A stretch of 64,000 nt of DNA from Ignavibacteria bacterium (GCA_037140715.1 JBAXDX010000001.1:8000-71999); one strand, 5' to 3'. Positions 2,806 to 62,012 are shown, counted from the stretch's first letter. Notes: generated by a model not told the origin, from the sequence alone. A program made the numbers and translations.

Positions 2806-5556
2806 CTAATAATAATATCCTATCGTAAAATAGAAAAACACAGGTCCTCTGGCGATGCGATTCCCATGTGATTTGTCCTGTCTGAATAAGAAACTGCGTC
2901 CAACGGAAAATTCCGCTGGGCCTAAAGGAGTGTCGAGTGAAAGCGTTGCACCGGCACCGTGCCTTAGGTCGGAGAAACGAATTAGTTCGCGGTTTACCCA
3001 ACTGGAGCCTAAGTCATAACGAAGTTTTAGGTAAGCGTCAAAAAATACTTTTAAAGGGATTCTGACACGGTACTCAAGCGAGGATAAGAATATTTGTCGT
3101 CCGCGGAATTCATAGTCGCGGAGTCCAAAAAATGAATTTTGCCCGCCAAATGAAAACTGTTGGCTTAACGGCAATGTGTTATCCGCAAAACCGATGGCTA
3201 CTCTGGGGCTGAATGAATGGACTTCATTTGAAGTAGTGATATGGCTTGTATAATCAAAATATATTTTTGTATAGCCAATGTCACTGACAAAGAGATTCTG
3301 CGCTGTTTCATAATATGCCTTAACCAGAAAACCCTTGTTCGGGAATGGGTATTTGTCCTGATTATCAATGGCAGATTGAACAGCCAGAGTAAAAATGTTA
3401 TTATTTTCGATAAAATTAAAATCGCGGATATTTGTGATTTTGCTATTCTGGTATTTTCCTTCAACTATCAGGTTGCCAAATTTTTCTGCCTGCATTCCAA
3501 ATCCCAATGAAAAACCTTTGTTTATCTGCTGGTATTCGGCGACCGAAAGACGATCGAATTTACCGCCTATTACAAGCGGGTTGTCCTCGTAGGAATATAT
3601 ATTATTAATATCATAGAAAGCGCGCAGTTTATAAGTCAGGTATGTCTGAAAAATTCTATTTGCTTTATGTTCAAGAATATAAGAACCATTGCGCTCGCCT
3701 CCTGAAATAATAAGTCCAAGCTCGGTGCCAGTGCCGACTAAGTTTTCATCACGGATATCGATGTTGCCCTGGACACGGTTTTCATTGTCAATCCTGAGTC
3801 CGAAACGTACAAGGCTCGACAGTTTTTCGGATACTTTAAGCTTCAGCGTATTTACTCCACCTGAATCGGACGATGTAAGTGAAATATCATTAAACAGATT
3901 TGTGCCCCGCAGGCTAGCGAGGCAGCCGTCAACTTTTTTATACTGAAAATAGTCGCCTGAATCAATAGGAAATTCTCTTTGTATAATACTGCGCTTTGTC
4001 TTCTGATTTCCATCAATCTCAATATTTAAGATTTTGCCTTCGGAGAATTTAAGGCTAAGGAGTCCCTGCCGGTTGTCGAAGTTTAGATTTTCAATTTCAG
4101 CCAGCGAATAACCGAGTCCGCGGTAGAGTTTAAGGATATTAAGGACAGTTAGATATATTTTTTCAATATTAAAAGGATTATTGAACAGCGGGGATAGCAA
4201 TGAATCAACCTTTGCCTGTTCAAGGAAAGTTATGCCTTCAACTGAGATTGCTTTGACGTATGGATTTTTCTTAGCGATAAATCTTATATGCGTCTGCCCG
4301 CTGTTTTCAGTTGCCGTCACATAAAGGCTGTCATAATCACCTGATTTATAAATATCGTTAAGGTCGTTAAGAATTTCGTGGTTGCTTACAGAATCCTTTT
4401 GTGAGTATTTATTAATAAGCTTTTTTTCAAACAGTTCGGTGTCATATCTGGAAGTAATGTTTTTGAGGAAAAATTCTTTCTCCTTAAGCTTGTTTATCGT
4501 TGTTTCTGCAATTTTTTTTTCAATTTTAGCAAGTAAAGGCAAAGTAGTTGTATAGCCTGCTTCTATGAGAGAATCGATATTTGAGAAGTCGGTATTTTTT
4601 CTTTTCCCCAGTTTGGGACTGATAACTACGTCTGCCATGCGCAGTTGCTGTTCGCTTAAGAGTCTCATTGGTATTGAAACAATCTGGCTGGCTACATTCC
4701 ATGGAGTTGCAAGTTCCAGTTGCGAATTAAGCGGGCTTGTGGTATTGAAAGCAATAACTATATCGTTGCCCGATTCGCGCGCAAGCTGGACGGGCACATT
4801 GGCTACAAGTCCGCCGTCAACGAGAAGCAGGCTGTCAATTCTTACAGGAGAAATAAATAATGTAACGCTTGAGCTTGCTCTCATTGCCTGACTGAGCGAG
4901 CCTCTGTCAAGAACGACTGCTTCGCCTGTAACGAGATTGGTGCAGACGGCTTTAAAATCAAAACGAAGTTCGTCAAAACCCGACTTAACGTGCAATGGCG
5001 CGTTAAGCGTTAACATGTTCAAATTGTTTGAAAATCTCTGCCCGTTATTTATAGATGTAGGTAGCACGACATGAAATCCTTCAAGGCGTAGCGTAACGAG
5101 CGCTTTATCTTCTGTTATTTTTTGCTCTACGAATAATTCATTTCTGCTTGTTTCGTCTGTCGATGTAAGAAATTCATTCCACGGCATAGCGCGAACAATT
5201 GAGTCAATTTCGTTTATGCTGTATCCTGCCGAGTATAATCCGCCAATAATGCTTCCCATGCTCGTCCCCGCAATTGAGCTGATCTGAATATTCTTTTCAT
5301 CTAATGCTCTGAGCACTCCAATTTGCGCCAGACTACGGGAACCGCCGCCGCTTAGAACGAGGGCAATCGAAGGTTCTATGGTTGAAATTTTTGCAGTAAG
5401 ACCAAAGGGAAGTTTTTTCTCTTTATACTGAAGACTGATAATTTTATTCGACTGGCAACAGACTCGGGACGGGCAGGCAAACAACAGGAAAAACAAAGGT
5501 GCTATTTTTAATAGCTTAAATATATTTGCCTGAAAGACTTTGTAAATATTTTTCAT
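2806..5556 (-). CDS. patatin-like phospholipase fused to POTRA/Omp85 beta-barrel (type Vd autotransporter, PlpD-like)
   Basis: 916 aa with a signal-like N-terminus. Patatin motifs are present: GGGSRS (oxyanion), GTSMGS (GxSxG) and VDGG (catalytic Asp). The C-terminal half is beta-rich and ends in aromatic residues (FTIGYYY), like Omp85/BamA barrels. Confidence 0.85.
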   Translation of the reverse strand: MKNIYKVFQANIFKLLKIAPLFFLLFACPSRVCCQSNKIISLQYKEKKLPFGLTAKISTIEPSIALVLSGGGSRSLAQIGVLRALDEKNIQISSIAGTSMGSIIGGLYSAGYSINEIDSIVRAMPWNEFLTSTDETSRNELFVEQKITEDKALVTLRLEGFHVVLPTSINNGQRFSNNLNMLTLNAPLHVKSGFDELRFDFKAVCTNLVTGEAVVLDRGSLSQAMRASSSVTLFISPVRIDSLLLVDGGLVANVPVQLARESGNDIVIAFNTTSPLNSQLELATPWNVASQIVSIPMRLLSEQQLRMADVVISPKLGKRKNTDFSNIDSLIEAGYTTTLPLLAKIEKKIAETTINKLKEKEFFLKNITSRYDTELFEKKLINKYSQKDSVSNHEILNDLNDIYKSGDYDSLYVTATENSGQTHIRFIAKKNPYVKAISVEGITFLEQAKVDSLLSPLFNNPFNIEKIYLTVLNILKLYRGLGYSLAEIENLNFDNRQGLLSLKFSEGKILNIEIDGNQKTKRSIIQREFPIDSGDYFQYKKVDGCLASLRGTNLFNDISLTSSDSGGVNTLKLKVSEKLSSLVRFGLRIDNENRVQGNIDIRDENLVGTGTELGLIISGGERNGSYILEHKANRIFQTYLTYKLRAFYDINNIYSYEDNPLVIGGKFDRLSVAEYQQINKGFSLGFGMQAEKFGNLIVEGKYQNSKITNIRDFNFIENNNIFTLAVQSAIDNQDKYPFPNKGFLVKAYYETAQNLFVSDIGYTKIYFDYTSHITTSNEVHSFSPRVAIGFADNTLPLSQQFSFGGQNSFFGLRDYEFRGRQIFLSSLEYRVRIPLKVFFDAYLKLRYDLGSSWVNRELIRFSDLRHGAGATLSLDTPLGPAEFSVGRSFLFRQDKSHGNRIARGPVFFYFTIGYYY

Positions 5557-7528: not shown

Positions 7529-7738
7529 TTAGTCTAATGGGTCAAATCCCCCCTTATTGAAGGGATTACATCTTAAAATCCGCCAAATTGATTTTATACT
7601 GCCTTTGAGAACTCCGTATTTGGTAAATGCCAGAAGACTGTATTGTGAACAGGAGGGATAAAACCTGCAAGAGGGCGGAAAAAGCGGAGAAATAAATTTT
7701 TGATATAGCCTGATAATGAAAACAAAAACATGTCGCAT
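7529..7738 (-). CDS. yidD: membrane protein insertion efficiency factor YidD
   Basis: 69 aa carrying the [10 protein letters not shown] ... RCNPF..GG.DP signature. It lies between rnpA and yidC. Confidence 0.9.
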
Positions 7739-8696: not shown

Positions 8697-10925
8697 TTGT
8701 GCGAAACCAGGAACCCAATGGCCAGGAAGTTTTCATTTTATTTTTTGTTTATTGGTATTTGTATCACAACGGTGTGGTATGTCCTGAATACAGGGAATAA
8801 GCCTGAGAATAAACCGTTCTCCAGTAGAGCAGATATTCAGACAGAAAAAACAATTGCAAATGTTCCTGCCGCCACTAAAGAAAATAATTGGTTCATTAAT
8901 TCATTTCATGAACTCACTAAAAGTGTCCGGCATCCTTTAAGTATATTAATTTTACAAATTCTTGTAATAATGGTATTTGCAAGGATTATGGGTCTGCTTT
9001 GTCTTTTTATAAATCAGCCTGCTGTGGTTGGTGAAATATTTGCCGGTATCATTTTGGGACCATCTCTCTTTGGGATATTTTTCCCTGGACTTTCGACCTT
9101 CTTATTCCCGCCTGCATCTTTGAATAACTTACAGTTCCTAAGCCAGCTCGGCTTGTTGCTTTTCATGTTCATCATCGGGATGGAGCTTGATGTAAAAAAG
9201 ATTAAGAGCAGAGCCAGCGATGCTCTGATAGTAAGTCATACAGCGATTGCTTTTTCCTATTTGCTTGGGGTGCTGGTTTCCCTCTATCTGTATCATGAAT
9301 TTGCCGCCGGCGATATACCCTTCTTTTCTTTTGCTCTATTTATGGGAATTGCAATGAGTATTACCGCTTTTCCTGTACTTGCGAGGATAATTCAGGAAAA
9401 GGGACATTCAAAGACTCCGCTTGGTGTTTTTGTGCTTACATGCGCTGCTGTGGACGATGTTACGGCCTGGTGTATTCTGGCTGTTGTAATAGCAATTATC
9501 AAGGCGGGTACTATATTAAATTCTCTGTTTACAATCGCGCTTGTCCTTGTCTATGTTTTTTTTATGCTCAGGGTGGTTCATTCGTTGTTGCAGAAAATCG
9601 GGAAAGTTTATATTTCCAAGGAAAATATGAACAGAACCGTAGTAGCTCTGGTTTTTCTCATACTTCTCTTATCATCCTATACTACCGAGGTTCTGGGCAT
9701 TCACGCTTTATTCGGAGCTTTCCTTGCCGGGGTCGTAATGCCGGATGATTTTGAATTTAAGTCGATAATATCTGAGAAGATTGAGGATATCAGTCTCGTT
9801 ATGCTTCTTCCATTGTTCTTTGTATTTACCGGGTTGAGAACTCAGATCGGGCTTATTAACAGTCCTCGTCATCTGCTCATCTGTCTGTTTATAATAGTAG
9901 TAGCAATTTTTGGGAAATTAGGCGGAGCCACACTCGCGGCAAGGTTTGTAGGACAGTCCTGGAAGAATTCCGTTTCAATTGGTGTACTAATGAATACGCG
10001 GGGACTTATGGAGCTTGTTGTTTTGAATATAGGGTATGACCTTGGCGTTCTTCGTCCTGAGATATTTACAATGATGGTGATTATGGCTGTAGTTACAACG
10101 GTCATCTCCGGTCCGTTGCTTGGAGTTGTAAATAAAATATTTGGAGAAGATAATAAAAGTATCTCCCCGCTTAATGATGGCAAAAAGATACTGATTTCCT
10201 TCGGCAATCCTAAAATGGGAAGCGTGTTGCTCCGGCTTGCAAATTATCTGACATCAAACCATAACGGCATATCCGGCATTACAGCCCTTCATATTACTCC
10301 CCGCTCCGAAATTAGTATACAGGATGCACAGGTTTATGAAATCGAGAGTTTTAGACCGATACAGCAGGCAGCGCGGGAGCTGGGCATCCGTATCGACACT
10401 CTTTACCGCCCGGCGGGTAAAATCGAAAAAGAAATAGCACTTGAAAGCAGAAAAGACAATTACAAAATTATTCTTGCGGGTAGTGCGCGTTCAGTCTTTA
10501 ATAACAGCATTACCGGCGGTAAAATAAAATATATACTCGATGAGAGTGTGTGCAACGTTGGTATTCTCGTAAATAATAACTTCAGGGAAGTTAATAATTT
10601 GCTGGTAATTCTTCATCAGAAATCCGACCTGAATCTTGTAAAGTACGTTAACGATTTTATTGAAAACAGCGTGGCTAAAGTGCTGATTTTCGATCCTGGC
10701 CGTCTTGCTGAAGAATCCCGGGAACTAATAAATATGTTGCAAAAGAATCAGGCGGGAACGAATATAATAAATGACTTCCTGATAAATAAAGTAAACCTTG
10801 CACCTTTTGATTTAATCATCGTAAGTATTGACTACTGGCAGAAAGCCAGTGAGTTCGGCGGACAGATACTGCACAGCAATTCTTCTGTTCTAATTATAAA
10901 GACGGTACAAAAGAAACAGATATAA
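8697..10925 (+). CDS. cation:proton antiporter (CPA2/Kef-type) with long cytoplasmic C-terminal domain
   Basis: 742 aa with about 12 TM segments and Na+/H+ exchanger family motifs (..GEIFAGIILGPS.., ..NTRGLMELVVL..). The ~250-aa soluble tail looks like a USP-like regulatory domain. The true start may be the internal Met at 8718. Confidence 0.85.
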   Translation: MCETRNPMARKFSFYFLFIGICITTVWYVLNTGNKPENKPFSSRADIQTEKTIANVPAATKENNWFINSFHELTKSVRHPLSILILQILVIMVFARIMGLLCLFINQPAVVGEIFAGIILGPSLFGIFFPGLSTFLFPPASLNNLQFLSQLGLLLFMFIIGMELDVKKIKSRASDALIVSHTAIAFSYLLGVLVSLYLYHEFAAGDIPFFSFALFMGIAMSITAFPVLARIIQEKGHSKTPLGVFVLTCAAVDDVTAWCILAVVIAIIKAGTILNSLFTIALVLVYVFFMLRVVHSLLQKIGKVYISKENMNRTVVALVFLILLLSSYTTEVLGIHALFGAFLAGVVMPDDFEFKSIISEKIEDISLVMLLPLFFVFTGLRTQIGLINSPRHLLICLFIIVVAIFGKLGGATLAARFVGQSWKNSVSIGVLMNTRGLMELVVLNIGYDLGVLRPEIFTMMVIMAVVTTVISGPLLGVVNKIFGEDNKSISPLNDGKKILISFGNPKMGSVLLRLANYLTSNHNGISGITALHITPRSEISIQDAQVYEIESFRPIQQAARELGIRIDTLYRPAGKIEKEIALESRKDNYKIILAGSARSVFNNSITGGKIKYILDESVCNVGILVNNNFREVNNLLVILHQKSDLNLVKYVNDFIENSVAKVLIFDPGRLAEESRELINMLQKNQAGTNIINDFLINKVNLAPFDLIIVSIDYWQKASEFGGQILHSNSSVLIIKTVQKKQI

Positions 10926-11775: not shown

Positions 11776-12168
11776 GTGGGAATATGGGTTTTGGATCAGG
11801 AAGGCAATAAACTGATTTCCAATAAAATGACGGATGAAATCTGGGGCGGTTTAATATATGAAAATCCCGCGGATCTCGGAAACTTTAAGGCGCGCTGGAA
11901 TGATTCAGGCGAGGTCATAAGCGCAAATCAATGGGCGGCTATAAAAGCCCTCAGGGGCGAAACGCACTTAAATCAGACTCTCGATATTGTGAACTTTGAC
12001 GGAACCCATAAGACTATTTTGGACTCTGGTATGCCGATTATCAAAAATAAGGACGATATCGCGGGCGCAATAATTATTAATGTGGATGTTACTCAGCAGA
12101 AAGAATGTGAGAAAAAGCTGAAGCAGGTTCAGTCCGAACTGGAAAAATATAAGCAAAAAAGCAAATAA
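11776..12168 (+). CDS. PAS-domain protein, C-terminal part of the interrupted GAF-PAS gene
   Basis: It is in the same reading frame as 11050-11739. The sequence right after the TAG reads QDLLQAILEAVPVGIWVLDQEGN, a typical PAS N-cap. Confidence 0.65.
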   Translation: MGIWVLDQEGNKLISNKMTDEIWGGLIYENPADLGNFKARWNDSGEVISANQWAAIKALRGETHLNQTLDIVNFDGTHKTILDSGMPIIKNKDDIAGAIIINVDVTQQKECEKKLKQVQSELEKYKQKSK

Positions 12169-12454
12169 CTGCGCAACGGCGAAATGTCTGTACTCGGCAT
12201 CCTGATGGATTTTTTTTATATACCTATTAATCGGACAGTCCGCAAAAGCCCGGATATCCGCAGAGGAAGCATTCTTTATTTTAGTTACAGATATTTGAAA
12301 AACAGCTTTATCTGTTCAGATGTAAAATATTAAATTCTATCGCGGATTTTAATAAATATATCTGTATTTTATGTACGGGAGTAACAAAAAAGAAGAAGGT
12401 AATTGTATTTTATCATAAAAGATTATAATTTCGGGGAAATTACAACAGGAATTA

Positions 12455-21893: not shown

Positions 21894-22214
21894 TTAAAAA
21901 TCTAGAATAAAATAACGGAAGGTACCTAAAAGTGCATATAGTGCATTTAAAATTCTTTTTCTTCCTCGCCCGAAACAGAAATCTCGTATATTCTCAAATT
22001 TATCACCTACAGCGGTTTTCCATGCTTCTTTCTCTTTTTGCTGCAATCCGGTTTTTGCATATTTATTAAGCGCACCTCTTAAACTTTTATTTACGGGAAC
22101 TGTTTTCACGCCAACTGCTTTCGGCTCCGGATTTTCCTCGCCTTCAAAAATTATAATTTCAACCATCCGTCCCTTATATTTTTCCAGTTCCTTTATCTTC
22201 ACTACGTTGTTCAT
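21894..22214 (-). CDS. hypothetical small protein upstream of clpB
   Basis: 106-aa ORF in the same orientation as clpB. No family recognised and the C-terminal third looks non-protein-like. Confidence 0.3.
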   Translation of the reverse strand: MNNVVKIKELEKYKGRMVEIIIFEGEENPEPKAVGVKTVPVNKSLRGALNKYAKTGLQQKEKEAWKTAVGDKFENIRDFCFGRGRKRILNALYALLGTFRYFILDF

Positions 22215-22331: not shown

Positions 22332-23021
22332 AAATTTCGACCGCGAAACTGTTTGAATTCACCCCATACGAAAAAATTTCATCCCACAGCTATAATTTCC
22401 AGGCAATTGGACAGGCGCAACGGCCGCACAGCTTTAAATTTCGACCGCATACATATAAAATTTGACCGCATTGATTCTAAAATTCACTGCATTGAAAGAC
22501 GCGGCGGCCGTATGGATATAATTTTCCGCCGTTTGGATATAATTTTTCTTCGTTTTGATTCCGGCGGAGTTCGTTTTGCTCCCGGCTGAGAATGTTTCGT
22601 ATAAAATTTCATCTGCAGTGAGTGCGTCCGGCTTTGTTTCGATATAAAATTCAGCTGCTGCGACAGTAAATTGAAATGCTGTGCTGTAAAACAAAACCGT
22701 TTTACTTATAAATTTATTTTTTATGCTGTAAATTGAAAATGTTTCATGCCTGTTTAAAAATGTTTTAGTTCCGGCAAAGAATGATATGCCGGAAAGCGGA
22801 TTCGTTTTTGTAAAAGCAGACTTCGTTTTTCAAAAAACAGCACTTGTTTTGACAAAAAAAATCTTCGTTTTTAAAGATGCGGCGACTGCGATAGAATAAA
22901 TTTTTCTCGTTTTTGAAAAAAATGGATTCGTTTTTACAAAAGTAAACTCCGTTTTAACAGATGCAGCACGCGTTTTAGTAGAAATTCACTCCGTTTAGAT
23001 GTGAATTCGGATGATGAAAGG
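22332..23021. repeat. degenerate tandem array with strict 21-bp phase (about 33 units)
   Basis: CGTTT(T/G/A) starts at 22530, 22551, 22572, 22698, 22803, 22824, 22866, 22908, 22929, 22950, 22971 and 22992, all equal to 22530 + 21n. Related TGTTT/CGCAT/TGCTG cores fill other phase positions back to 22341. A/T runs alternate with the cores. Confidence 0.8.
22983..23021 (+). repeat. left copy of 39-bp direct repeat bounding the defence islet
   Basis: AATTCACTCCGTTTAGATGTGAATTCGGATGATGAAAGG matches 28318-28356 at 38/39 positions. Confidence 0.9.
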
Positions 23022-23068
23022 CATTTATAAATATATAGATTATAATTATTCCTGCTCTAAAAACCAGT

Positions 23069-23112
23069 AAAAATAATTGTCGTCAAACGATAGTTCTAAA
23101 TGCCGCTAATCA
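23069..23112 (+). repeat. left copy of 44-bp direct repeat (inner pair)
   Basis: AAAAATAATTGTCGTCAAACGATAGTTCTAAATGCCGCTAATCA matches 26923-26966 at 40/44 positions. Confidence 0.85.
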
Positions 23113-23753
23113 GAATCTGAATGCCCTTTTTGTCCTCCGGTCGGATGCCTGCTTTTTTCTTTTGTGTTTTTCGGAAAATGATGATTCATAACATCACCTG
23201 ATGGCGGAAGACTGCTGTTATGGCCGTCTGAATGTAACACCGGCTCTGATTTCTTCAACCGCTCATCAGGTATTTCTATTTTTAATTCCGGCTCAATGAT
23301 ATAACTGATTACGGACTCACGACCCTGATTTATGTCTTTCTGTCAGATTTATCATGGGGTTCTGTATATCAAGTTTTACTTTAATATGCAGGACATGTCT
23401 TATTATTTTATAACATTTTTTTATTTATGCTGAGTAGTTACATTTTTTTGTATATTTAATGAAAGAAAAAGTTCTGCAAAGTTTTATCAGATTAAACGAT
23501 ATAATGAAATTCATAAATTTATTAGTTTATAAGTTCAACTATCTATAAAAGTAAGGATTTACGAAAATATATAAAATTTTATCGCCAGTAGATTACAATA
23601 CGATTACTCATTTTAAGCAATATGGAGCAAAAAACATGAGTATATAATAGAAAAATGATTTTTTAGTTGCTTTTGAATACTACATATTAAAATATAGAAA
23701 GTATGAGCAGAAATCGTACTGGATTTTATTAACTAAAATGATAAGACTAACAA

Positions 23754-24854
23754 ATGAATTATTATGAAAAAATTAGAGAATTGACAAGAAACGTTCCAAC
23801 AACATTAGTGGACTTTAATTTACGTAGAGAACCGGCAAGAACGCCAACTCAGGCGTCTTCAAATTTTATAACAAACAAAGAACAAGGGGACTGGGCAGAA
23901 TATCTTATCTTCCGCGCAATTAATGAAACATCAAAGAATTTTGTAGCTGTAAAATATGGTAAATCAGATAATCTTGTCGCCGGCGAAGAAGGATTTGATA
24001 CTTTTTATCAATCTTTTCAAGAAGAACTTGATTCCATAGGTAAACGACCAGATTTATTAATATTTAAGAAAACTGATTTTGATGATAAGCTGGGAGTCAA
24101 CATTAGCAATATTCCATATCACCAAATTACAGAGTATGTTAAAAAAGCTATTGCCGGAATTGAGGTCAGGTCAAGCTCTTTTTTAATTGACCAGTACGAA
24201 GCTGAAATGCAATCGCGAACAGAACGGTTTACGAGAATTGCTTTAGAGCTCAGAGACAACATATTATCTGAATATCATGATATCCTTAATGTTTCACCAC
24301 GACAGAAATACATTTCCGTTTTAGAAGGTATTTCTAACGAAACTCTTAGTATTACGGATTTTAAAGTCCCTGGGTGGAAATCTTCGGACAGGCTTGTTCA
24401 ACTAAATAATCAGTTTAAGAACCTAAAAAAAGCAATTAAGGAAATTCAAAAGAGGGATTATCTTTCCATAACTCCCAAAGTAGAAGACATCAAAGTTGTT
24501 TATAAATGGATTGAAACTTTCAATGTACCTCATTTTTATTTCCAGGTTTTTTTTGATAAAGTCTATGGCATTTCCTTTGAGCATATTCTTGAAATAATAT
24601 CAGATACTGACAATGACGGCGTAATATTTTCAGTAGAAACAGATACAAAAAATCAAAATAAAACGACCATAAAAATAAATTCAAAAACCGGGGTTCAAAT
24701 AGCTTATAAGGTTGACGAACCAGACCATAAGAGTGTAAGAAAAGAAATAGAGCGGGGCAGATTGCTTTTTTATGTAAGCTTTAATGGAGGAACCGCTTAT
24801 TTAGATGTAGATAACCTAAAAAATATTTTAACACTAAGCGAAGAAGAATTTTAA
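23754..24854 (+). CDS. putative type II restriction endonuclease (PD-(D/E)xK-like)
   Basis: 366 aa. It contains ..KRPDLLIF.. followed about 35 aa later by ..GIEVRSS.., a PD...ExK/R-like nuclease core. Its stop overlaps the ATG of the adjacent methyltransferase by 1 nt (TAATG). Confidence 0.55.
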
Positions 24855-26452
24855 TGGCGTATATAAATGTAAATAATATTTCCGATGAAGTTGAACGAGA
24901 ATATTCGGCTTCCACGCCTGTTGAACATAGAAAAAAATACGCTCAGTTTTTTACCCCGCCGATTATTGCTGATCTGATGGCGACATGGATTATCGGAAAT
25001 AAGAAATTGGAAGTTGTTCTGGAGCCGGCTTTTGGGCTTGGCATTTTTTCGAGAACTCTACTTAATAAAAAGTCCGGTATAATAATTAACGGGTTTGAAG
25101 TTGACAAGAAAATCTATCAAAAATCATTAGACTTATATAAAAATGAAAAGAATATTTCTATTCAGTTCAAAGATTATATGTATAATGATTGGGAAAATAA
25201 ATACGATGGCATTATGTGTAATCCTCCATACTTCAAATTCCACGACTATGATAACAAGAATATTCTTAATGAGATAGAAGAAAAAACATCTTATAAACTC
25301 AACGGGTTTACAAATTTATATGCTCTTTTTCTTCTAAAGTCTATTTACCAGCTAAATGAGAACGGCAGAGCGGCTTATATTATTCCCTCAGAACTTTTGA
25401 ATTCTGACTATGGTAAAAAAGTAAAAAAATATTTAGTAGAAACTAAAACGCTAAGACATGTAATCATAATAGATTTCGAAGAAAACGTTTTTGATGGCGC
25501 ATTAACAACCGCATCTATACTCTTATTCGCAAATGATGATGAAGCTGCCAGCGTTCAATTTCATAATATTAAAAATGTCACCGCTCTTCACCCAATAAAA
25601 AAAATAATAGATGAATATCCGGACAATAAAACAAATTTATGTTCTATAAAAATTGAAGAGCTTAAACCAGCAATTAAGTGGCGGGCTTATTATCAGGAAC
25701 AAAATTATAAAAAATATAAACACTTCGTGCCATTTGGAACTTATGGAAAAGTAGTAAGAGGAATAGCAACCGGCGCAAATGAATATTTTACCTTTAATCC
25801 ATCGAAGGCAAAACAGTTCGGTATAAATCAGAAGTATTTATTGCCCTGTATATGTAAGTCTGTCGATATTAAGGGTTCTTTTTTTACAGAAATAGAATTT
25901 GAACAATTACAGAAAAATAATAAACACGCGTTACTTCTTAATGCTATCAACCCGATAGATGACTCTGTAAGGAAGTATATTTCAATAGGAGAAAAAGACG
26001 GGATAGATAAAAAGTTCCTGACTTCTCATAGAAATCCCTGGTATGCTTTAGAGAATAGACTGCCTGCGCCTATCCTGGTATCTGTTTTTAATAGAAACGG
26101 ATTGCGGTTTATTAGAAATGAAGCAGGTATCTCAAATCTTACAACCTTTCACTGTATGTATATAAACAAATACTTCATTCATAAAACAGACTTGCTCTTT
26201 GCTTATCTGCTTACCGATATTTCAAAAGAAATATTCGGAGATAACCGCAGAGAATATGGCAATGGTCTTCAAAAATATGAGCCGAATGATATAAATGGAG
26301 CAAAAATATTGGACTTAGAATTGATTGACTCCAAAATAGAAAAAGTAATACTGCAACTATTCAATAGTTATAGGGAATCAGTTCTAAACCGGCAGCCAAA
26401 TGATAATTATATCAAAGAAATAGAGACTCATCTTTTGAAAATCTTCTGCTAA
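24854..26452 (+). CDS. gamma-class N6-adenine DNA methyltransferase (TaqI/Eco57I-like)
   Basis: 532 aa with the order QFFTPP (motif X), LEPAFGLG (motif I) and CNPPYF (motif IV NPPY), then a long C-terminal target-recognition region. Confidence 0.9.
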   Translation: MAYINVNNISDEVEREYSASTPVEHRKKYAQFFTPPIIADLMATWIIGNKKLEVVLEPAFGLGIFSRTLLNKKSGIIINGFEVDKKIYQKSLDLYKNEKNISIQFKDYMYNDWENKYDGIMCNPPYFKFHDYDNKNILNEIEEKTSYKLNGFTNLYALFLLKSIYQLNENGRAAYIIPSELLNSDYGKKVKKYLVETKTLRHVIIIDFEENVFDGALTTASILLFANDDEAASVQFHNIKNVTALHPIKKIIDEYPDNKTNLCSIKIEELKPAIKWRAYYQEQNYKKYKHFVPFGTYGKVVRGIATGANEYFTFNPSKAKQFGINQKYLLPCICKSVDIKGSFFTEIEFEQLQKNNKHALLLNAINPIDDSVRKYISIGEKDGIDKKFLTSHRNPWYALENRLPAPILVSVFNRNGLRFIRNEAGISNLTTFHCMYINKYFIHKTDLLFAYLLTDISKEIFGDNRREYGNGLQKYEPNDINGAKILDLELIDSKIEKVILQLFNSYRESVLNRQPNDNYIKEIETHLLKIFC

Positions 26453-26666
26453 GAAACTCATCGTTTCGCTATATCCAAATCATACTCAGGTTTGTAAATA
26501 TTTTTGTATAGCTGAGGAAAACAAACATCAGATGAATATGTTTTTTTTGCTCCAGCAGAGATAAGAGCGCTGCCCTCCTTGCCTATATTAGTGAGACAAA
26601 AAATACAGATAAAATAAGACTGAGGGTAAAGGAGAGAATAAAGTGATAAGTCATAGTGTAAATACC

Positions 26667-26720
26667 GAAACATCTGAAACGGAAGGATCCCGAAGGGCGG
26701 GTGGAGTTTCAGATGTTTCA
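26667..26720. repeat. perfect 14-bp inverted repeat, 26-nt GC-rich loop
   Basis: GAAACATCTGAAAC (26667-26680) pairs with GTTTCAGATGTTTC (26707-26720). Confidence 0.7.
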
Positions 26721-26922
26721 TCGCAAAAAAAAGCAGTCCCGGATTCAGAGGTAAAAGTACCGGTAAGATGCCCCAGGTATATAGAGAACTTTAAGCAGGA
26801 AGTCCTGAAACATGTCTGTGAATTACGAGGGGGTTATAGAAACACAACTAATTTTATTCATATGATTTACTTTGTGGCGGGTAAATTAAAGTATGATTAC
26901 CCACTATAAACAACATAGACCC

Positions 26923-26966
26923 AAAAATAATTGTCGTCAACCGGTAATTCTAAATGTCGCTAATCA
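26923..26966 (+). repeat. right copy of 44-bp direct repeat (inner pair)
   Basis: Matches 23069-23112 at 40/44 positions. It lies 12 nt beyond the stop of the macrodomain gene. Confidence 0.85.
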
Positions 26967-26977
26967 AATTGTAAAAG

Positions 26978-28021
26978 CTAATAATTGTATAAGTAATTTT
27001 GGAATTCTTTTAATCGCGCATAAGTAACCTTAATATATTCAGGCTTCATTATGTTTCTTTTTCTTTCATTCCATTCATATACTTTTGTTACCGCAGCTTC
27101 GTAATTGTCCAATAATGAAGGGTCTTCATTAATTACGAAATCAACTGTTGACAGCAATTCCATGCCAAAAGGAAATTCAAACCCTTCGATTAATGAATAA
27201 ACCTTTTCTAATCTGTCTTTTTGTTCATCAGAGCAATTTTCATTTGTAAATAAATCAACAACAGACAGCATTTCTTTTTTAAGAGTGATACAATCAAAAG
27301 GTTTTGCATCCTTAAATTTCATTCCGTCAAGATAAGTCCCGTCCATATCGCTTAATACATGAACTAATTTACCGGCATAGGGACCATAAAGATTTCTTTG
27401 ATAATCCAGTCGAAGATTTTCGCCAAATCTTTGAAGAAAATAGACTAATTTTTGAGCTTCAAGCAAAGTAAGGTCTGTCCGATAACGGTTTAGAATCATA
27501 AGAACTAATGCTCTGACCTTAGTCAGTTTGGGAGGTCTCGCATTTATCAGAATATTATTATAAGCACTTTCTGAAGGCTCGTATATTATTACATCAAGGT
27601 CTTCAATACCAGACATATTATTTAGAATTATCTGCTTCACTTCGTCCCAGTTTAACCCTCCGTTACCACATCCTAAAGGCGGAATGGCAACAGACTTTAT
27701 TGAGTAATTTTTAATTACTTCTTTAAGATTAACAAGCCCGGTTTCAATATAATCAATTTTAGACGGGTTCCTCCAATGTTTCTTGGTGGGAAAATTGATT
27801 ATATATCGTGGTTTAGTAATCTGTGTGGTTTCTGTTACAAACATTTTACCGATGTCAAGCTTATTGGTTTTAGCGGCATTTTCATAAAGTTTAAAGTTAT
27901 AAGGATACATCTTCTTAAATTGAATAGCTATTCCCTTGCCCATAACCCCCATAGTATTTATGGTATTTACGATTGCATCGGTTTCGGACTCTAATATATT
28001 TCCTTTCACAAATCGTATCAT
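26978..28021 (-). CDS. darG: macrodomain protein, DarG-like antitoxin (ADP-ribosyl-DNA glycohydrolase family)
   Basis: The N-terminal macrodomain (MIRFVKGNILESETDAIVNTINTMGVMGKGIAIQFK...YIINFPTKKHWRNPSK...IPPLGCGNGGLNW) closely follows the DarG macrodomain pattern as I recall it from M. tuberculosis and Thermus. There is a ~190-aa helical C-terminal domain (..EAQKLVYFLQ..YGPY..). The ATG at 28021 overlaps the upstream stub's stop by 1 nt. Confidence 0.75.
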   Translation of the reverse strand: MIRFVKGNILESETDAIVNTINTMGVMGKGIAIQFKKMYPYNFKLYENAAKTNKLDIGKMFVTETTQITKPRYIINFPTKKHWRNPSKIDYIETGLVNLKEVIKNYSIKSVAIPPLGCGNGGLNWDEVKQIILNNMSGIEDLDVIIYEPSESAYNNILINARPPKLTKVRALVLMILNRYRTDLTLLEAQKLVYFLQRFGENLRLDYQRNLYGPYAGKLVHVLSDMDGTYLDGMKFKDAKPFDCITLKKEMLSVVDLFTNENCSDEQKDRLEKVYSLIEGFEFPFGMELLSTVDFVINEDPSLLDNYEAAVTKVYEWNERKRNIMKPEYIKVTYARLKEFQNYLYNY

Positions 28022-28269
28022 TAAAAATACCACCTTTCTTGTTTTTTGACTATTATTTTTAGTCCCGTTTTTCCTGCTTCTTTTTCAATGTAATTTAGCA
28101 TTTTATCATTATAAGAAGCAATGCCCGATATAGAGTTTGCCGGGAAGCAGGAGAATTTAAGAGTTTCCAGTAGCTGCCCGTAAAACCCCGGTACCTGTTT
28201 TTGTCCGGAGAGCCGCACAGAGCAAAGAAACAGGACTGCCATGAACGGCAGAGACGGGCAGTAATTCAC
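28021..28269 (-). pseudogene. darT: 5'-truncated darT-like (DUF4433) toxin remnant
   Basis: The 82-codon ORF ends ..LLETLKFSCFPANSISGIASYND...KKQERWYF*. This resembles the DarT C-terminus (..AEFLV..P...I..I.V...WYY). The frame is closed by a stop at 28321-28323 inside the right direct repeat, so at most about 100 codons exist versus about 200-230 for DarT. The N-terminal NAD-binding half is missing. Confidence 0.5.
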
Positions 28270-28317
28270 TTCAAAGCTGAAAGGCAGGAATAATTTCAGG
28301 GATAAAAGTAATGAAAT

Positions 28318-28356
28318 AATTCACTCCGTTTAGATGTGAATTCGGATGATTAAAGG
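28318..28356 (+). repeat. right copy of 39-bp direct repeat bounding the defence islet
   Basis: AATTCACTCCGTTTAGATGTGAATTCGGATGATTAAAGG matches 22983-23021 at 38/39 positions. Confidence 0.9.
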
Positions 28357-28372
28357 GAATTTGCTACGCACT

Positions 28373-29611
28373 CTAATAATGAGACGAAAACAGTTCGAAA
28401 TATTTCCGGCTCATATCTTTAAGCGAAAAATTCTCCGCGGCATAAGCGCGTGCGCTGCCGGATAATTCCTGCAGACGGGTTTCATCGAACAACAACCGGA
28501 CGGTTTTTTCTGCGAAGTCATTTAAATCAAAAGGCTTAATCAGGCGGCCTGAGATATTATCTTTAATAATTTCACCGCAGCCACCTATATCAAAAGTAAT
28601 AGCCGGAGTTCCGCATGAGACTGCCTCTACAAGAGCGTTCGACAGATTATCCGCCTTCGTTGGAAAGACAAGCATATCGGCAGCCGAAAGACACAGGCGC
28701 ATCTTCACTTCATCCTGAACATAACCTGCGCTGTGAATGCGGAAATTCTTCAGCTCAGATATTTCCTCTATTTCTCCAAGTCCCAGTATCAGCAGGTGAA
28801 TCTCAGTTTTAGCCATTGAGCCGATTAATTTCAGAATCTGAATAAGGTCGCGTCCTCCTTTGTAAATATTCTTGCTGAGCTTTTCGGCGCTAAACATAAG
28901 CGTTTTTGCTTCACGCGGAATATTAAGCTCTTCGCGCGCCCGCGCCTTATCCATAGGAGAAAAAATCTCCAAATCAAGTCCGTTAAAAATATGACGCACC
29001 TCGCGGCCTTCAAGCACGGGGCTTTGTATGGCAAGGTTGTAAAGCCATTTGGAAGGAGCAACGAAACTGACATTGGAAGCTGCGTATATACGCTTTTTCT
29101 GTCTTAAAAGAAAACTCCCCGTGTTAATGCCGAGCGCGGGGAAAGATTTGGCATTCGAACGGCTGTTTTTCATTTCTTTCCATGATTCATCTCCGAAAGT
29201 ATGGGCAGAGTTGCCTGTGAATGTCCACATATCGTGCATTGTCCAGACAATAGGGGCTTGTTTCGAGAGTTCAGCAATCATCGGTGTTTCAAAATATCCG
29301 CCCAATGTGTTATGCAGACTTATGATATCAGGTTTTAGCTCCTTAACTTTTTGCCTGATTATCTTAGGTGATACGGGCAGGTACTGATACTGAAGTCCTA
29401 ATGCATTGGAGAAGACATTAAACCAGCGCTCAAAGGACTGGTCGAAGCCGTTTTGACGCGTGGCAAATACATTGGGTTTGTCGGAACGTTTGGTCCTTAC
29501 TACAAAATAGTTATCAGTATGGCAATATTTTTCCAGTCCGCTGCCCAGCCGGGTAGCTGCAATAGCCGATCCGCCTATTACATCCGATATGTTTATGAAT
29601 AGTATCTTCAA
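28373..29611 (-). CDS. family 4 glycosyltransferase (GT-B)
   Basis: 412 aa with N-terminal MKILFIN..GG and a C-terminal E..G....EA...G.P motif (LVEAVSCGTPAITFDIGGCGEII). Confidence 0.85.
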   Translation of the reverse strand: MKILFINISDVIGGSAIAATRLGSGLEKYCHTDNYFVVRTKRSDKPNVFATRQNGFDQSFERWFNVFSNALGLQYQYLPVSPKIIRQKVKELKPDIISLHNTLGGYFETPMIAELSKQAPIVWTMHDMWTFTGNSAHTFGDESWKEMKNSRSNAKSFPALGINTGSFLLRQKKRIYAASNVSFVAPSKWLYNLAIQSPVLEGREVRHIFNGLDLEIFSPMDKARAREELNIPREAKTLMFSAEKLSKNIYKGGRDLIQILKLIGSMAKTEIHLLILGLGEIEEISELKNFRIHSAGYVQDEVKMRLCLSAADMLVFPTKADNLSNALVEAVSCGTPAITFDIGGCGEIIKDNISGRLIKPFDLNDFAEKTVRLLFDETRLQELSGSARAYAAENFSLKDMSRKYFELFSSHY

Positions 29612-46973: not shown

Positions 46974-47216
46974 CAATGCTGTCAGGTTAAGGTTCAAAAC
47001 TTTTATTGCGCCCTTTCAGGGCTTTTTGGGTTGTCGGGGAATTTATTTTTCACAGGGCGATTGCCCTGTGCTATTATATTTCGCCCTTTCAGGGCTGAAT
47101 CAGCCCTGAAAGGGCGAAATATATCAGCGATGGGCAACCAACCGCCCATCGAACAAAACAAAATAAAATCCATAAGCCCTACAGGGGCGCAATATGGTGT
47201 TAACCTGACAGCATTG
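46974..47216. mobile_element. 243-bp MITE-like palindromic element at the metH stop codon
   Basis: The 17-bp inverted repeats CAATGCTGTCAGGTTAA (46974-46990) and TTAACCTGACAGCATTG (47200-47216) are perfect. TCAGTCCTG flanks both sides (46965-46973 and 47218-47226). The interior is a nest of hairpins, e.g. TCGCCCTTTCAGGGCTGAATCAGCCCTGAAAGGGCGA. Confidence 0.7.
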
Positions 47217-56588: not shown

Positions 56589-57244
56589 TGTTAGATATAG
56601 AAAATCAGCAAGGAATTAAAAACGAGACTGTAAATATTTTTGTGTAAAAAATAAAGATTAGAATTTGTCGATAACCTCTTCGCTAAAATTAACCATTTAG
56701 ATTACTCCTGTCTGTATTCCTGTTCTTTTTCAGAATTCTTTCCATCCTTCCATATCGCCTAATCTTAGCCTGACAGAAAGATTATAGAATTTTTACAAAA
56801 GAAAGTTATAAATAATGAGCATTATGAAACTTTTGAAAAATTCTATCGGGAATAAACTTCATTTACTTCGAATCTGATTTTCGAAAACCATTTTCTATTG
56901 CGTATATTTGCGAAAATAAATATCGGTATTCTGTTTGCTTTGAATGCCATTGCTCAATATTACCCATCAGAAATAGTTTCCTCAGCTGAGTAGTTACGGA
57001 TTTAAAACTCAACATTTTAGTTTTTGGACAGATTCTCCTGCTTTTAATGAATCTGTAAACGGATACCTGTACTGGTAATCCTGCATAACCAATAAAATAT
57101 TTACACATACATATTTTTTCGAAAGATTTATTTTAGATTGTCAGGTAATATTTTATTTTGTTAACAAATAACAACTTATAGAATCCTGAAAGATTTAACT
57201 TGTTCCATCCTCAAAATGTTTCTATTTTTCAAGAAGCATTGAAA

Positions 57245-57480
57245 TGTTGATAAAGTGTTGATAATTATTAATTGTGAAACTATTTCACAATTCAGGCAAC
57301 ATGTTATCTACATGGCAAATATAATCTTATTTGTTTACATGGAATAGAAAAACTCAATAAGTCACTATTTTACAATAAGTTAACATATAAACATTAATGT
57401 TATCAATATGTTGATAACTATTTACTGACAGATGTTGCCTCTATAAATTATTTATTTTAAAATTTAAAATTCTTTTTTTT
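57245..57480. promoter_or_regulatory. oriC part 1: DnaA-box-like cluster plus AT-rich stretch upstream of dnaA
   Basis: TGTTGATAA at 57245-57253, 57256-57264 and 57409-57417. TTATCTACA at 57304-57312. TTATCAATA at 57400-57408. Each has 1-2 mismatches to TTATCCACA. An AT-rich tract spans 57440-57480. Confidence 0.6.
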
Positions 57481-57481
57481 A

Positions 57482-58900
57482 ATGTTAATAACTATGAATA
57501 TTACTGAAATTTCAAGCAACAATTCCAAAATGATTTGGAAAGAATGCTTAAAAATCATAAAAGAAAATGTCCCTTACATGACCTATAACACATGGTTTCT
57601 TCCTATAAAGCCAATCCTTCTGAACGGACAGTCGCTTAAAATACAGGTTCCGAACAATTTCTTTATCGAGTGGATTGACGGACACTATAATACTTTAATA
57701 AACAAGACTATCCACCAGGTTATTGGACTGGAAGCTGAACTTGTCTATATAATATCAGATGAAAATGATATACCTGAAATTGAACTTAGACGTGAAGAAC
57801 CCAGCCGCCATGAACCTGTTCAGACTGCAGTCATCGAAAAAGAGATTAAAAACGATAAACCTGAATTTGAAACATATCTTAATCAAAAATATACATTTGA
57901 TAACTTCATTAAAGGTGATGGCAACCAGCTTGCAAGAGCCGCCGCATTTGCTATTAGTGAAAATCCAGGTGAAACTTCTTTTAATCCCCTTTTTATTTAT
58001 GGTGGCGTAGGACTTGGCAAGACTCATCTTATTCAGGCAATCGGTAATAAAATTTTGAGTAATTATCCTCATAAAAGAGTTATCTATCTGTCGAGTGATA
58101 TATTTACTGTTGAATTTGTTGAAGCTGTACAAGCTAACAAGGTAAATGAGTTTTCAAATTTTTACAAAAAAATGGACGCGCTTATAATAGATGATATTCA
58201 ATTCCTTATAAATAAGGAAAAAACTCAGGACTTGTTCTTTAATATTTTTAATATACTTCACCAGTCCGGCAAACAAATCATTCTTTCAAGCGACAAACCC
58301 CCAAAAGACTTAAAAGGTCTAAATGAACGCCTTATATCCAGATTTCAATGGGGACTGTCAGCGGATATTCAGCCACCTGATTATGAAACGCGTTTTGCCA
58401 TATTAAAGAAAAAGAGCGAAAACTATGGAATTTATTTATCTCCTGATATATTGGAATATATAGCTATAAATATTACATCCAACATCAGGGAACTGGAAGG
58501 CTGTCTGATAAAGCTTCTGGCGAATACATCGCTTAGTTCCAAGGAAATTAATCTGGAAATGGCTAAAAAGACAGTTAAAGAGATAGCCACAGACAGAAAG
58601 GTAAATATTTCAATAGAATATATTACTAAAGTTGTCTGTGAGTGCATGAATGTAGAAGAAAACAAGGTCCGCGAAAAAAACAGAAAACAGGAAGTAGTAC
58701 TTGCACGGCAAATAGCAATGTACTTATCTAAAAAACTAACCAAGTCTTCGCTGAAAACCATTGGTCTTCACTTTGGCGGAAGGGATCATTCTACCGTTAT
58801 ACATGCATGTAATAATATTGAAGTTCTGTCAAATGAAGATATTGCGCTAAAAGACGTACTCGAATCTATCAGAAATAAGATTGAACTTAGCGTTGCTTAG
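57482..58900 (+). CDS. dnaA: chromosomal replication initiator DnaA
   Basis: 472 aa with the AAA+ Walker A GGVGLGKTHL, ..IDDIQF.., and the C-terminal DNA-binding domain ..GGRDHSTVIHA.. The start may be the Met at 57494. Confidence 0.97.
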   Translation: MLITMNITEISSNNSKMIWKECLKIIKENVPYMTYNTWFLPIKPILLNGQSLKIQVPNNFFIEWIDGHYNTLINKTIHQVIGLEAELVYIISDENDIPEIELRREEPSRHEPVQTAVIEKEIKNDKPEFETYLNQKYTFDNFIKGDGNQLARAAAFAISENPGETSFNPLFIYGGVGLGKTHLIQAIGNKILSNYPHKRVIYLSSDIFTVEFVEAVQANKVNEFSNFYKKMDALIIDDIQFLINKEKTQDLFFNIFNILHQSGKQIILSSDKPPKDLKGLNERLISRFQWGLSADIQPPDYETRFAILKKKSENYGIYLSPDILEYIAINITSNIRELEGCLIKLLANTSLSSKEINLEMAKKTVKEIATDRKVNISIEYITKVVCECMNVEENKVREKNRKQEVVLARQIAMYLSKKLTKSSLKTIGLHFGGRDHSTVIHACNNIEVLSNEDIALKDVLESIRNKIELSVA

Positions 58901-58901
58901 A

Positions 58902-59141
58902 TGTGGATAACGTACATGGTAAGTGTTGGCTAATTGTTGTGTATGTACGTTTTCAGCTGACTATGTTGATATCATACTATATGGAAAGACTTATCCACAT
59001 TTAATAAAATCCAAAAGTTTGCAATACAGTTTATATTTGTGGCATTTTAAGTTATCAACATATTCACATCTTTATTAGATTTATTAAAAATTTTTAAAAA
59101 TAAATTAATATAATATAAATGAGTGTGTGGATTGTTGATAT
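58902..59141. promoter_or_regulatory. oriC part 2: DnaA boxes and AT-rich unwinding candidate between dnaA and dnaN
   Basis: Perfect boxes TGTGGATAA (58902-58910) and TTATCCACA (58991-58999). Near-boxes lie at 58964-58972, 59052-59060, 59126-59134 and 59133-59141. About 50 nt of almost pure A/T spans 59066-59120. Confidence 0.75.
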
Positions 59142-59220
59142 TCATAAGCGACGGAACATAATTCGCGTTGTATCTATATATAATTTTTGATATTTTGGCA
59201 TATCAATTTGGAAAATTAGA

Positions 59221-60354: not shown

Positions 60355-60355
60355 A

Positions 60356-61919: not shown

Positions 61920-62012
61920 GAGTTACAAATATCAGTTCAGAACCGATAAATATCGGTTCCGAGCTGATAAATATGGGTTCCGAGCCGATAATTTTTCGTA
62001 ACATGAGTTACA
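61907..62012 (+). repeat. 21-nt-phased composite: direct repeat - 3 tandem units - direct repeat
   Basis: TTTTTCGTAACATGAGTTACA occurs at 61907-61927 and 61992-62012. Between the copies are ATATCAGTTCAGAACCGATAA (61929-61949), ATATCGGTTCCGAGCTGATAA (61950-61970) and ATATGGGTTCCGAGCCGATAA (61971-61991). Confidence 0.85.

Follow-up and report, generated by a model that had tools for sequence, protein, structure and literature searches.

In 64,000 nt of a metagenome-assembled Ignavibacteria genome, a 5.3-kb islet of accessory genes lies between two copies of a 39-nt direct repeat. (The 64,000 nt, GCA_037140715.1 JBAXDX010000001.1:8000-71999, will be called the window; positions are counted from its first nucleotide. 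The source is contig k141_1822543 of ENA ERZ27300037.) As judged from its sequence, the islet is a mosaic without any mobility of its own: it contains an intact AccI-type restriction-modification (R-M) pair, an orphan gene for the antitoxin DarG, and the 5' stub of a transposase gene from the insertion sequence (IS) family IS66. Operationally, the islet belongs to the published class of "R-M insertion with long target duplication" (PMC2853133). The best explanation, which we put at about an even chance, is that a single insertion duplicated a target or attachment (att) sequence of 39–44 bp. The islet is a clean example, from the little-studied phylum Ignavibacteria, of a recombinase-less R-M system between long direct repeats.

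The features of the islet and its edges are as follows (ORF, open reading frame):

22332–23003, no strand: 21-bp phased array, 32 units printed in 21-nt register
22983–23021, + strand: 39-nt direct repeat, left copy; similarity continues to 23026
23044–23055, no strand: 12-nt inverted repeat, left arm, AATTATTCCTGC; 22 nt inside the left 39-nt copy
23069–23124, + strand: nested 56-nt direct repeat, copy A; 47 of 56 nt identical to copy B
23121–23327, – strand: 5' remnant of an IS66-family transposase gene, about residues 12–72 (Pfam DUF6444; tblastn)
23331–23753, no strand: non-coding stretch, very AT-rich (23% GC), that precedes the restriction gene
23754–24854, + strand: AccI-family type II restriction endonuclease, 366 amino acids, intact (PF09545, positions 1–366 of 366, E = 2e-204; PADLOC REase_II)
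24854–26452, + strand: N6-adenine DNA methylase (Eco57I-type), 532 amino acids, intact (PADLOC MTase_II)
26453–26922, no strand: 470-nt spacer with two ORFs (87 and 88 amino acids)
26923–26978, + strand: nested 56-nt direct repeat, copy B; abuts the darG stop codon
26978–28033, – strand: DarG, macrodomain DNA ADP-ribosyl glycohydrolase antitoxin, intact (PADLOC DarG, E = 4e-121)
28024–28176, – strand: 3' stub of darT, residues ~162–212 of 212 (tblastn with DarT of the relative L093; PADLOC)
28177–28265, no strand: GC-rich (55%) block of 89 nt with a terminator-like hairpin on the – strand (28251–28236)
28266–28289, + strand: partial third copy of the 39-mer, read from the sequence
28284–28295, no strand: 12-nt inverted repeat, right arm, GCAGGAATAATT; 22 nt inside the right 39-nt copy
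28318–28356, + strand: 39-nt direct repeat, right copy; similarity continues to 28361; 16 nt from the GT4 stop
28373–29611, – strand: GT4 gene, the ORF adjoining the right 39-nt copy

The 39-nt repeat spans the end of a phased array

The original prediction, made from the sequence alone, described the 39-nt repeat (AATTCACTCCGTTTAGATGTGAATTCGGATGAT(G/T)AAAGG) as present twice in the same orientation, with 38 of 39 positions identical. A mismatch-tolerant search confirmed this: at up to 3 mismatches, there were 2 matches in the window and 0 in 100 dinucleotide-preserving shuffles. The single mismatch (G/T) is at position 34, which leaves an exact stretch of 33 nt. Ungapped extension lengthens the similarity to 44 nt, of which 41 are identical. 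Beyond that, the flanks of the two copies are unrelated on either side, so the repeat is sharp-edged. The copies are 5,296 bp apart (23022–28317), and the left one contains a 7-bp inverted repeat (AATTCAC-N11-GTGAATT). Comparison with the end of the GT4 ORF (28373) also confirmed that the right copy stops 16 nt short of the first gene of the glycan locus. Nor is the 39-mer abundant, a possibility that the original prediction had raised: besides the 2 copies in the window, its exact 25-mer core had 0 matches in our collections of genome contigs and of metagenome contigs.

The left copy was originally described as the terminal unit of an array running from 22332 to 23021. This is correct for its first 21 nt: the last array unit (22983–23003) scores 7.3 against a leave-one-out profile of the array. 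But the next 21 nt (23004–23024) score −12.7, and the remaining 18 nt of the 39-mer (23004–23021) are not array sequence by this profile. All of the sequence to the right of the left copy, and around the right copy, scores at background level. (We also considered the 47 nt after the left copy as additional array units, and scores of −8.7 and −3.2 ruled this out.) So the 39-mer spans the junction between the array and unique sequence, and it is not merely two array units.

The junction bears on whether the repeats were there before the cargo. The array might once have reached the GT4 gene, or its end might have been locally duplicated, and accessory genes could then have accumulated between the copies or been swapped by homologous recombination. 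Several observations fit this idea. The left copy starts with a genuine in-register array unit, and a partial third copy of the 39-mer lies beside the right copy (28266–28289, AATTCACT-TCAAAGC-TGAAAGGCA; this is the first 8 nt and the last 9 nt of the 39-mer, plus the CA that trails the left copy, with 7 unrelated nt in between). The islet has clearly been assembled piecemeal, in at least two steps. Also, "chance insertion between repeated sequences" is a recognized class (PMC2853133), and another AccI-family R-M locus (L223) lies in a repeat-rich region. However, array units are only ~50–90% alike, versus 97% for the two copies of the 39-mer, and the copies share 18 nt that are not array-like. 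That the 39-mer spans the junction therefore makes cargo between pre-existing repeats less likely. Furthermore, there are no array-like units around the right copy, no other array unit is duplicated elsewhere, and another 21-bp array in the window carries no cargo. Two rare events would be needed, instead of one for an insertion with duplication. We consider this explanation unlikely. The same evidence gives no support to the original suggestion that cargo is exchanged by recombination at array units, as just one unit is involved and the repeat runs 18 nt into non-array sequence.

The array itself has 32 units in perfect 21-nt register, with zero indels, even though conservation is good only at unit positions 10–11, in a Y-G core (yyCGTTTT). 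Such a register despite such divergent units argues for selection on the spacing (two helical turns) rather than a dead satellite. Phased arrays of 21 bp recur in this genome, with different unit sequences. One further intergenic array, at 1944–2376, separates a patatin/Omp85 gene from an unannotated gene; its roughly 20 units (CTTCCAGGAACTTCGGATAAG) have up to 92% matches. Another, with just 3 units, follows recF (61927–61991). Neither has repeat-flanked cargo beside it. The profile contains too little information to locate related units elsewhere (background scores reach 13.4, versus 0–12 for the units). Three phased TTCGTTTT cores, when searched for in viral contigs, had 56 matches, many of them in giant-virus contigs from metagenome-assembled genomes; as a pattern, this was too unspecific.

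The R-M pair and the orphan antitoxin

Profile matches and tblastn agree with the original prediction of an R-M pair, a DarG-like macrodomain gene, and a darT stub between the copies. The methylase matches positions 5–529 of the 541-position PADLOC model MTase_II (E = 2.5e-221), and its start overlaps the stop of the restriction gene (24854). The AT-rich stretch at 23331–23753 presumably holds the promoter region for the pair; it is not homologous to the sequences that flank other AccI R-M loci. The two ORFs in the spacer at 26453–26922 had no match in Pfam, NCBIfam, PHROGs, or PADLOC.

The R-M genes have spread horizontally. Homologues of the restriction enzyme that are 73–80% identical are found in Flavobacterium, Chitinophagaceae, Parabacteroides, Kapabacteria, and Ignavibacteria, that is, in Bacteroidota, Kapabacteria, and Ignavibacteria. 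In contrast, ClpB from this genome is 65–67% identical to Bacteroidota proteins (the best among the GTDB matches listed) and 83–85% identical to its nearest relatives. At the DNA level, homology to the nearest R-M loci (75.6%) covers 23722–26448, which is just the two R-M genes. The collections searched contained no strain-level relative of the R-M pair or of DarG.

DarG scores 411 bits against the NCBIfam equivalog NF048014, whose cutoff is 250, and its nearest homologues are only 57% identical. When we compared the 212-amino-acid DarT of L093 to the window with tblastn, residues 162–212 aligned to 28176–28024, and nothing beyond them was found upstream. Similarly, the 82-amino-acid ORF upstream of darG matches the PADLOC model of DarT at its C-terminal end only (positions 152–196 of 196, E = 3e-3). 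What remains of darT is the last 51 codons; about 160 codons are gone, and DarG is therefore an orphan. Two relatives, L092 and L093, have intact darT-darG operons, while here no intact DarT lies directly upstream of DarG.

By analogy with papers on DarTG and its orphan antitoxins (PMC5179494) and on orphan DarG-like enzymes (PMC11825919), the predicted role of a DarG without DarT is that it could remove the DNA ADP-ribosylation made by an incoming DarT. Unlike the orphan DarG of phage counter-defence, this one is chromosomal and comes from the truncation of its own toxin gene. The islet shows a toxin-antitoxin pair that is decaying in place into an orphan antitoxin. As in defence islands, an R-M system and a DarTG-derived gene are clustered with transposase debris.

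The GC-rich block at 28177–28265 separates the darT stub from the right end of the islet. It could be the native terminator of the GT4 gene or part of the element's end. Its hairpin (CTGCCGTTCATGGCAG, with a T-rich tail) is on the GT4 gene's strand.

The predicted target site is depleted

The islet's restriction enzyme is predicted to cut the AccI site GTMKAC, a specificity that is inferred from family membership. This site occurs just 2 times in 64 kb (at 10315 and 32488), while base composition predicts about 56 occurrences and a maximal-order Markov model predicts about 18. Relative to composition, this is a depletion of ~25-fold. The four GTMKAC words rank 17th to 41st lowest of 4096 hexamers in the window. 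Ratios of observed to expected sites were:

This window: 0.04
L154, which carries an AccI-family R-M system: 0.00
L159, which carries an AccI-family R-M system: 0.11
Ignavibacteria relatives without an AccI-family R-M system: 0.28–0.72
80 diverse clpB loci, pooled: 0.79

If the predicted specificity is right, the R-M system has probably been active in this lineage for long enough to purge the sites. We also noticed that GGGCCC and GAGCCC/GGGCTC are absent from the window and that many hexamers containing CTAG occur zero or one times, which hints at further restriction pressures.

The depletion of the chromosome also argues that the islet belongs to this genome and is not an assembly chimera. 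We did consider that the assembler might have threaded in a separate circular element, or DNA from a foreign organism, that shares the 39-mer. The connectivity does depend on one MEGAHIT contig (ERZ27300037 k141_1822543), and the joins are not confirmed by the independent Logan contigs (SRR7053541), every one of which breaks within the 39-mer. But such breaks are expected, because Logan contigs were presumably built with k-mers of ~31, which is shorter than the exact repeat of 33 nt. The prefix k141_ suggests that the final MEGAHIT k-mer was 141, and an assembly at that length is unlikely to have been misled by a repeat of 39 nt. Furthermore, both flanks of the right copy are present in Logan contigs with the expected sequence, and it is the chromosome outside the islet that is 25-fold depleted in the islet's predicted site. 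We consider an artefact extremely unlikely.

A nested repeat and an IS66 remnant

Within the islet, the 56-nt direct repeat (84% identity) brackets the IS66 stub and the R-M pair. The stub matches Pfam DUF6444 (E = 2.7e-8), and its matches in plasmids are annotated as "IS66 family transposase". With an annotated IS66 transposase from Acaryochloris as the tblastn query, residues 12–72 aligned (E = 2e-6). The original prediction stated that no integrase, transposase, or relaxase lies inside the islet; it does lack an intact recombinase, but this 5' transposase stub at 23121–23327 had been overlooked.

The similarity to the transposase ends at GGQKGH, at most 3 nt from the edge of copy A of the 56-nt repeat. 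We considered that the 56-nt repeat might be part of the IS66 gene and rejected this as unproven; because the transposase similarity stops at its edge, the repeat is probably not IS sequence. The R-M pair and the IS66 stub seem to have come in by an insertion of their own, nested immediately downstream of darG, that left the 56-nt repeat. The nested insert would have been a fragment in which a cut IS66 gene accompanied the R-M genes. Divergence is greater in the inner repeat than in the outer one (9 of 56 versus 1 of 39 mismatches, Fisher p = 0.04), which hints that the R-M system joined darG before the islet arrived at this site, although this order is not secure.

As in a composite or IS66-family transposon, a transposase fragment lies at the islet's end and adjoins a short sequence that is repeated across the R-M pair. 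However, only about residues 12–72 of the transposase remain, and there are no terminal inverted repeats that abut the duplication; the islet's inverted repeat is set 22 nt further in. A duplication of 8 bp is typical of IS66, compared with 39 or 56 nt here. Classical transposon ends were rejected because the internal 12-mer is the only inverted repeat and no 8-bp duplication lies beside it.

How the islet may have arrived

The 12-nt inverted repeat is exact, and its arms are at the same 22-nt offset inside the two copies of the 39-mer. AATTATTCCTGC has no further exact occurrence in the window. In 2,000 shuffles of the 120-nt inner flanks, an inverted match of at least 12 nt at equal offset arose 0 times (the longest was 9 nt), and one at any offset within 120 nt arose in 0.05% (0.0005) of the shuffles. 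Because these repeats lie exactly 22 nt inside each copy, we infer that the inserted DNA had defined ends.

In the single-insertion explanation, 23022–28317 would be imported DNA that entered the chromosome in one event. The insertion point would be the junction of the last array unit and the unique sequence downstream of the GT4 gene, so that the site's earlier layout would have been array-39mer-GAATTTGCTACGC-GT4. A target (or att) sequence of 39–44 bp would have been left duplicated on both sides; that is, the outer repeats presumably arose at insertion. The ends would be marked by the 12-nt inverted repeats, and the recombinase would since have been lost or been supplied in trans, as in a cis-mobilizable element (CIME). 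In a circular form, the 12-mers would flank the 39-mer symmetrically (12 + 22 + 39 + 22 + 12 nt), much like an attP site, and the 39-mer itself might consist of two inverted half-sites of 9 nt that are separated by a 7-nt spacer.

Alternatively, the insertion might have happened without a dedicated recombinase, as in the events described by Kobayashi and colleagues. A linear or circular R-M fragment would have been joined into a long-staggered break, possibly made by restriction attack, and repair synthesis would have duplicated 39–44 nt; the 56-nt repeat would have formed likewise, and the 12-nt repeats would be incidental. We view this as possible, with a modest chance of being right. The islet agrees with the operational criteria of Furuta et al. 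2010 (see below), and no integrase was found nearby (among the islet's ORFs and the called genes at 9.2–39.6 kb of the window). The nested 39-nt and 56-nt pairs, which are unlike in sequence, suit variable target duplications better than a single att specificity. Other members of the AccI family of R-M systems are flanked by repeats too, and the inner insert's end cuts the IS66 gene arbitrarily, as the end of a random fragment would. However, this explanation does not account for the exactly symmetric 12-nt inverted repeat. The class excludes genes from other mobile elements, yet an IS66 remnant is present, and the mechanism of the class is itself unknown. Also, the excess of repeat-flanked R-M loci over control loci (given below) is not significant.

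We also considered that the array's end might be a dedicated landing pad at which a host or trans-acting recombinase captures or exchanges recombinase-less defence cassettes, as in an integron. The recombinase would recognize the terminal array unit and its flank, the 12-nt inverted repeats would be signals at the cassette's ends, and a previous exchange would have left the partial third copy of the 39-mer behind as a scar. This more exotic reading is unsupported, and we think it very unlikely; the islet is real, well bounded, and in a described class.

Several observations weigh against a single insertion with a duplicated target or att site. The 12-nt inverted repeat was noticed post hoc, and it is significant by its position only, because 12-mers from the AT-rich flanks often have matches in 64 kb. 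Neither an integrase nor a relaxase was found among the islet's ORFs or the called genes at 9.2–39.6 kb. There is no tRNA or tmRNA in the window and no Rfam family at the insertion site. The partial third copy at 28266–28289 is left unaccounted for by a single insertion. The strong avoidance of GTMKAC implies long residence, and hence that the insertion is old, so the 97% identity of the repeats is not evidence of recency. The collections searched held no strain-level or genus-level relative with conserved synteny, and hence no empty site was seen. The closest relatives by ClpB (83–85% identity) have mnmE-gidA upstream, differing synteny, and no array, so they are useless as comparators; in particular, three of them (L086, L088, and L090) lack such an array upstream of clpB. 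And the islet's compositional shift is real but weak, and not unique.

In detail, the GC content is 33.1% for the islet, 38.4% for the window, 40.5% for the 10 kb to the left, and 37.5% for the 10 kb to the right. The islet is within the lowest 7% of 5.3-kb windows by GC and within the top 8% by tetranucleotide distance. The original claim that the islet is AT-richer than its neighbours thus stands, but the region at 53–58 kb, near dnaA, is both AT-richer and more deviant in tetranucleotides. (That region is not a second islet, as it comprises two response-regulator/histidine-kinase genes and the region upstream of dnaA.) The GC content at third codon positions is 0.26–0.30 for the islet's genes and 0.38–0.46 for neighbouring genes, but dnaA, dnaN, and the histidine kinases are similar to the islet. 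Because dnaA and other core genes share these low values, we do not take composition as proof of foreign origin.

Comparison with known classes of elements

Insertion of R-M genes with long target duplication was reportedly described by Nobusato et al. in 2000, and 25 years later its mechanism is still unknown. In the definition of Furuta, Abe and Kobayashi (2010), both R and M are in the insert, the insert is under 20 kb, the duplication is over 30 bp, and there is no other mobile element (PMC2853133). Their examples have repeats of 46–47 bp with identities of 44/46 to 47/47 that are found nowhere else in the genome; class membership rests on an empty site in a second genome. They stated that the mechanism was unknown and suggested double-strand breakage (PMC2853133).

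In our islet, both R and M (RE_AccI and N6_Mtase/Eco57I) are full length, the insert is 5,296 bp, and the repeat measures 39 nt with 38 identical positions, or 44 nt with 41 when extended. With 2 copies in the window and none elsewhere, the repeat is low-copy. There is no intact mobility gene, although an IS66 remnant lies inside. So, apart from the IS66 stub, the islet agrees with every criterion of Furuta et al. that does not need a second genome. As in the published class, the insert's composition is slightly off the host's. Unlike it, the R-M genes are accompanied by remnants of an IS66 gene and of a toxin-antitoxin system, a symmetric 12-nt inverted repeat lies inside the ends, and the target is the point where a phased tandem array stops. 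To call the islet non-standard, as the original prediction did, was too strong: an R-M system without a mobility gene between repeats of over 30 bp is a published class (PMC2853133), and other AccI-family loci are alike. The islet leaves the current view of how such islets work unchanged. It could still help to test mechanisms, with its two nested repeat pairs, its symmetric sub-terminal inverted repeat, and a host that is nearly purged of the predicted site.

Two other loci, L154 and L210, have AccI-family R-M systems between direct repeats of 34–244 nt with no internal recombinase. In L154, a 6.9-kb cassette (a helix-turn-helix gene, R, M, and a helicase) lies between 244-nt direct repeats whose first 106 nt are 99% identical, with no tRNA. 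These repeats (5264–5505 and 12139–12380 of a Chitinophagaceae-type contig) contain a terminator hairpin. The helicase is of the AEP-TOTE/DEAD type, and the cassette's close neighbours, outside the repeats, include an IS91-type transposase and a short integrase. In L210, the R-M pair is tightly flanked by a hairpin-forming repeat of ~56 nt (7625–7685 and 10730–10790), and a compensatory G/C swap in the copies preserves the hairpin. Overall, 3–5 of ~40 evaluable AccI-family R-M loci are flanked by repeats, versus 2 of 55 control clpB loci, an excess that is not significant; the repeats at the two control loci are large, gene-sized duplications (426 and 1,462 bp). We regard this comparison as supportive, not statistically compelling.

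The original prediction also offered a decayed integrative element. A CIME is defined as a state bounded by direct repeats whose recombinase was lost or is supplied in trans (PMC5704250). Similarly, the islet is an accessory block bounded by attL/attR-like repeats, and genes for integration and transfer are absent from it and from the called genes at 9.2–39.6 kb. The partial extra copy of the repeat by the right end resembles the internal att remnants that arise from tandem accretion. However, CIMEs descend from integrative and conjugative or integrative mobilizable elements, and here the IS66 stub is the sole mobility remnant: no remnants of integrase, relaxase, or transfer genes were found in the islet, and no related element was found in the collections searched, nor is a cognate element with an integrase known. 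Also, the target is an array/intergenic junction and not a tRNA, a tmRNA, or the 3' end of a conserved gene. So the anatomy is compatible with a decayed integrative element, including the symmetric inverted repeat that was not matched at equal offset in the 2,000 shuffles, while descent from either kind of element does not show.

By inspection, we rejected a Xer-dependent element (an integrative mobile element exploiting Xer, or a pdif module) or a dif site. A dif-like site is 28 bp, in which 6 nt separate the 11-nt arms for XerC and XerD. In the 39-mer, the arms (AATTCAC/GTGAATT) are 7 nt long and 11 nt apart, and the conserved TTATG...AA of the XerD arm is missing.

Neighbouring genes and other features

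Exact look-ups of GT4, ClpB, DarG, the restriction enzyme, and orf106 gave no matches beyond the source contig and short Logan contigs of one run. Between clpB and the array, orf106 (21894–22214, – strand) matched no family in Pfam, NCBIfam, or PHROGs. The N-terminal half of its product, with strands and then a KYAK...EKEAW helix, resembles small proteins of the antitoxin type, and the predicted structure is too poor for use (predicted local distance difference test, 58). Across the array from the islet, orf106 may thus represent a further accessory remnant.

In relatives, clpB adjoins mnmE-gidA-gidB, so the neighbourhood of clpB has been rearranged in this genome. dnaA (57482–58900), dnaN, and recF are at 56589–61474 of the window, after an AT-rich intergenic region of 890 nt that is probably oriC; if so, the islet is ~30 kb from the origin. 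Finally, a match to the Acido-Lenti-1 small RNA (Rfam; 47051–47096, + strand) scores 45.3 bits, above the gathering score of 37. It closely follows the stop of metH, which is encoded on the other strand.

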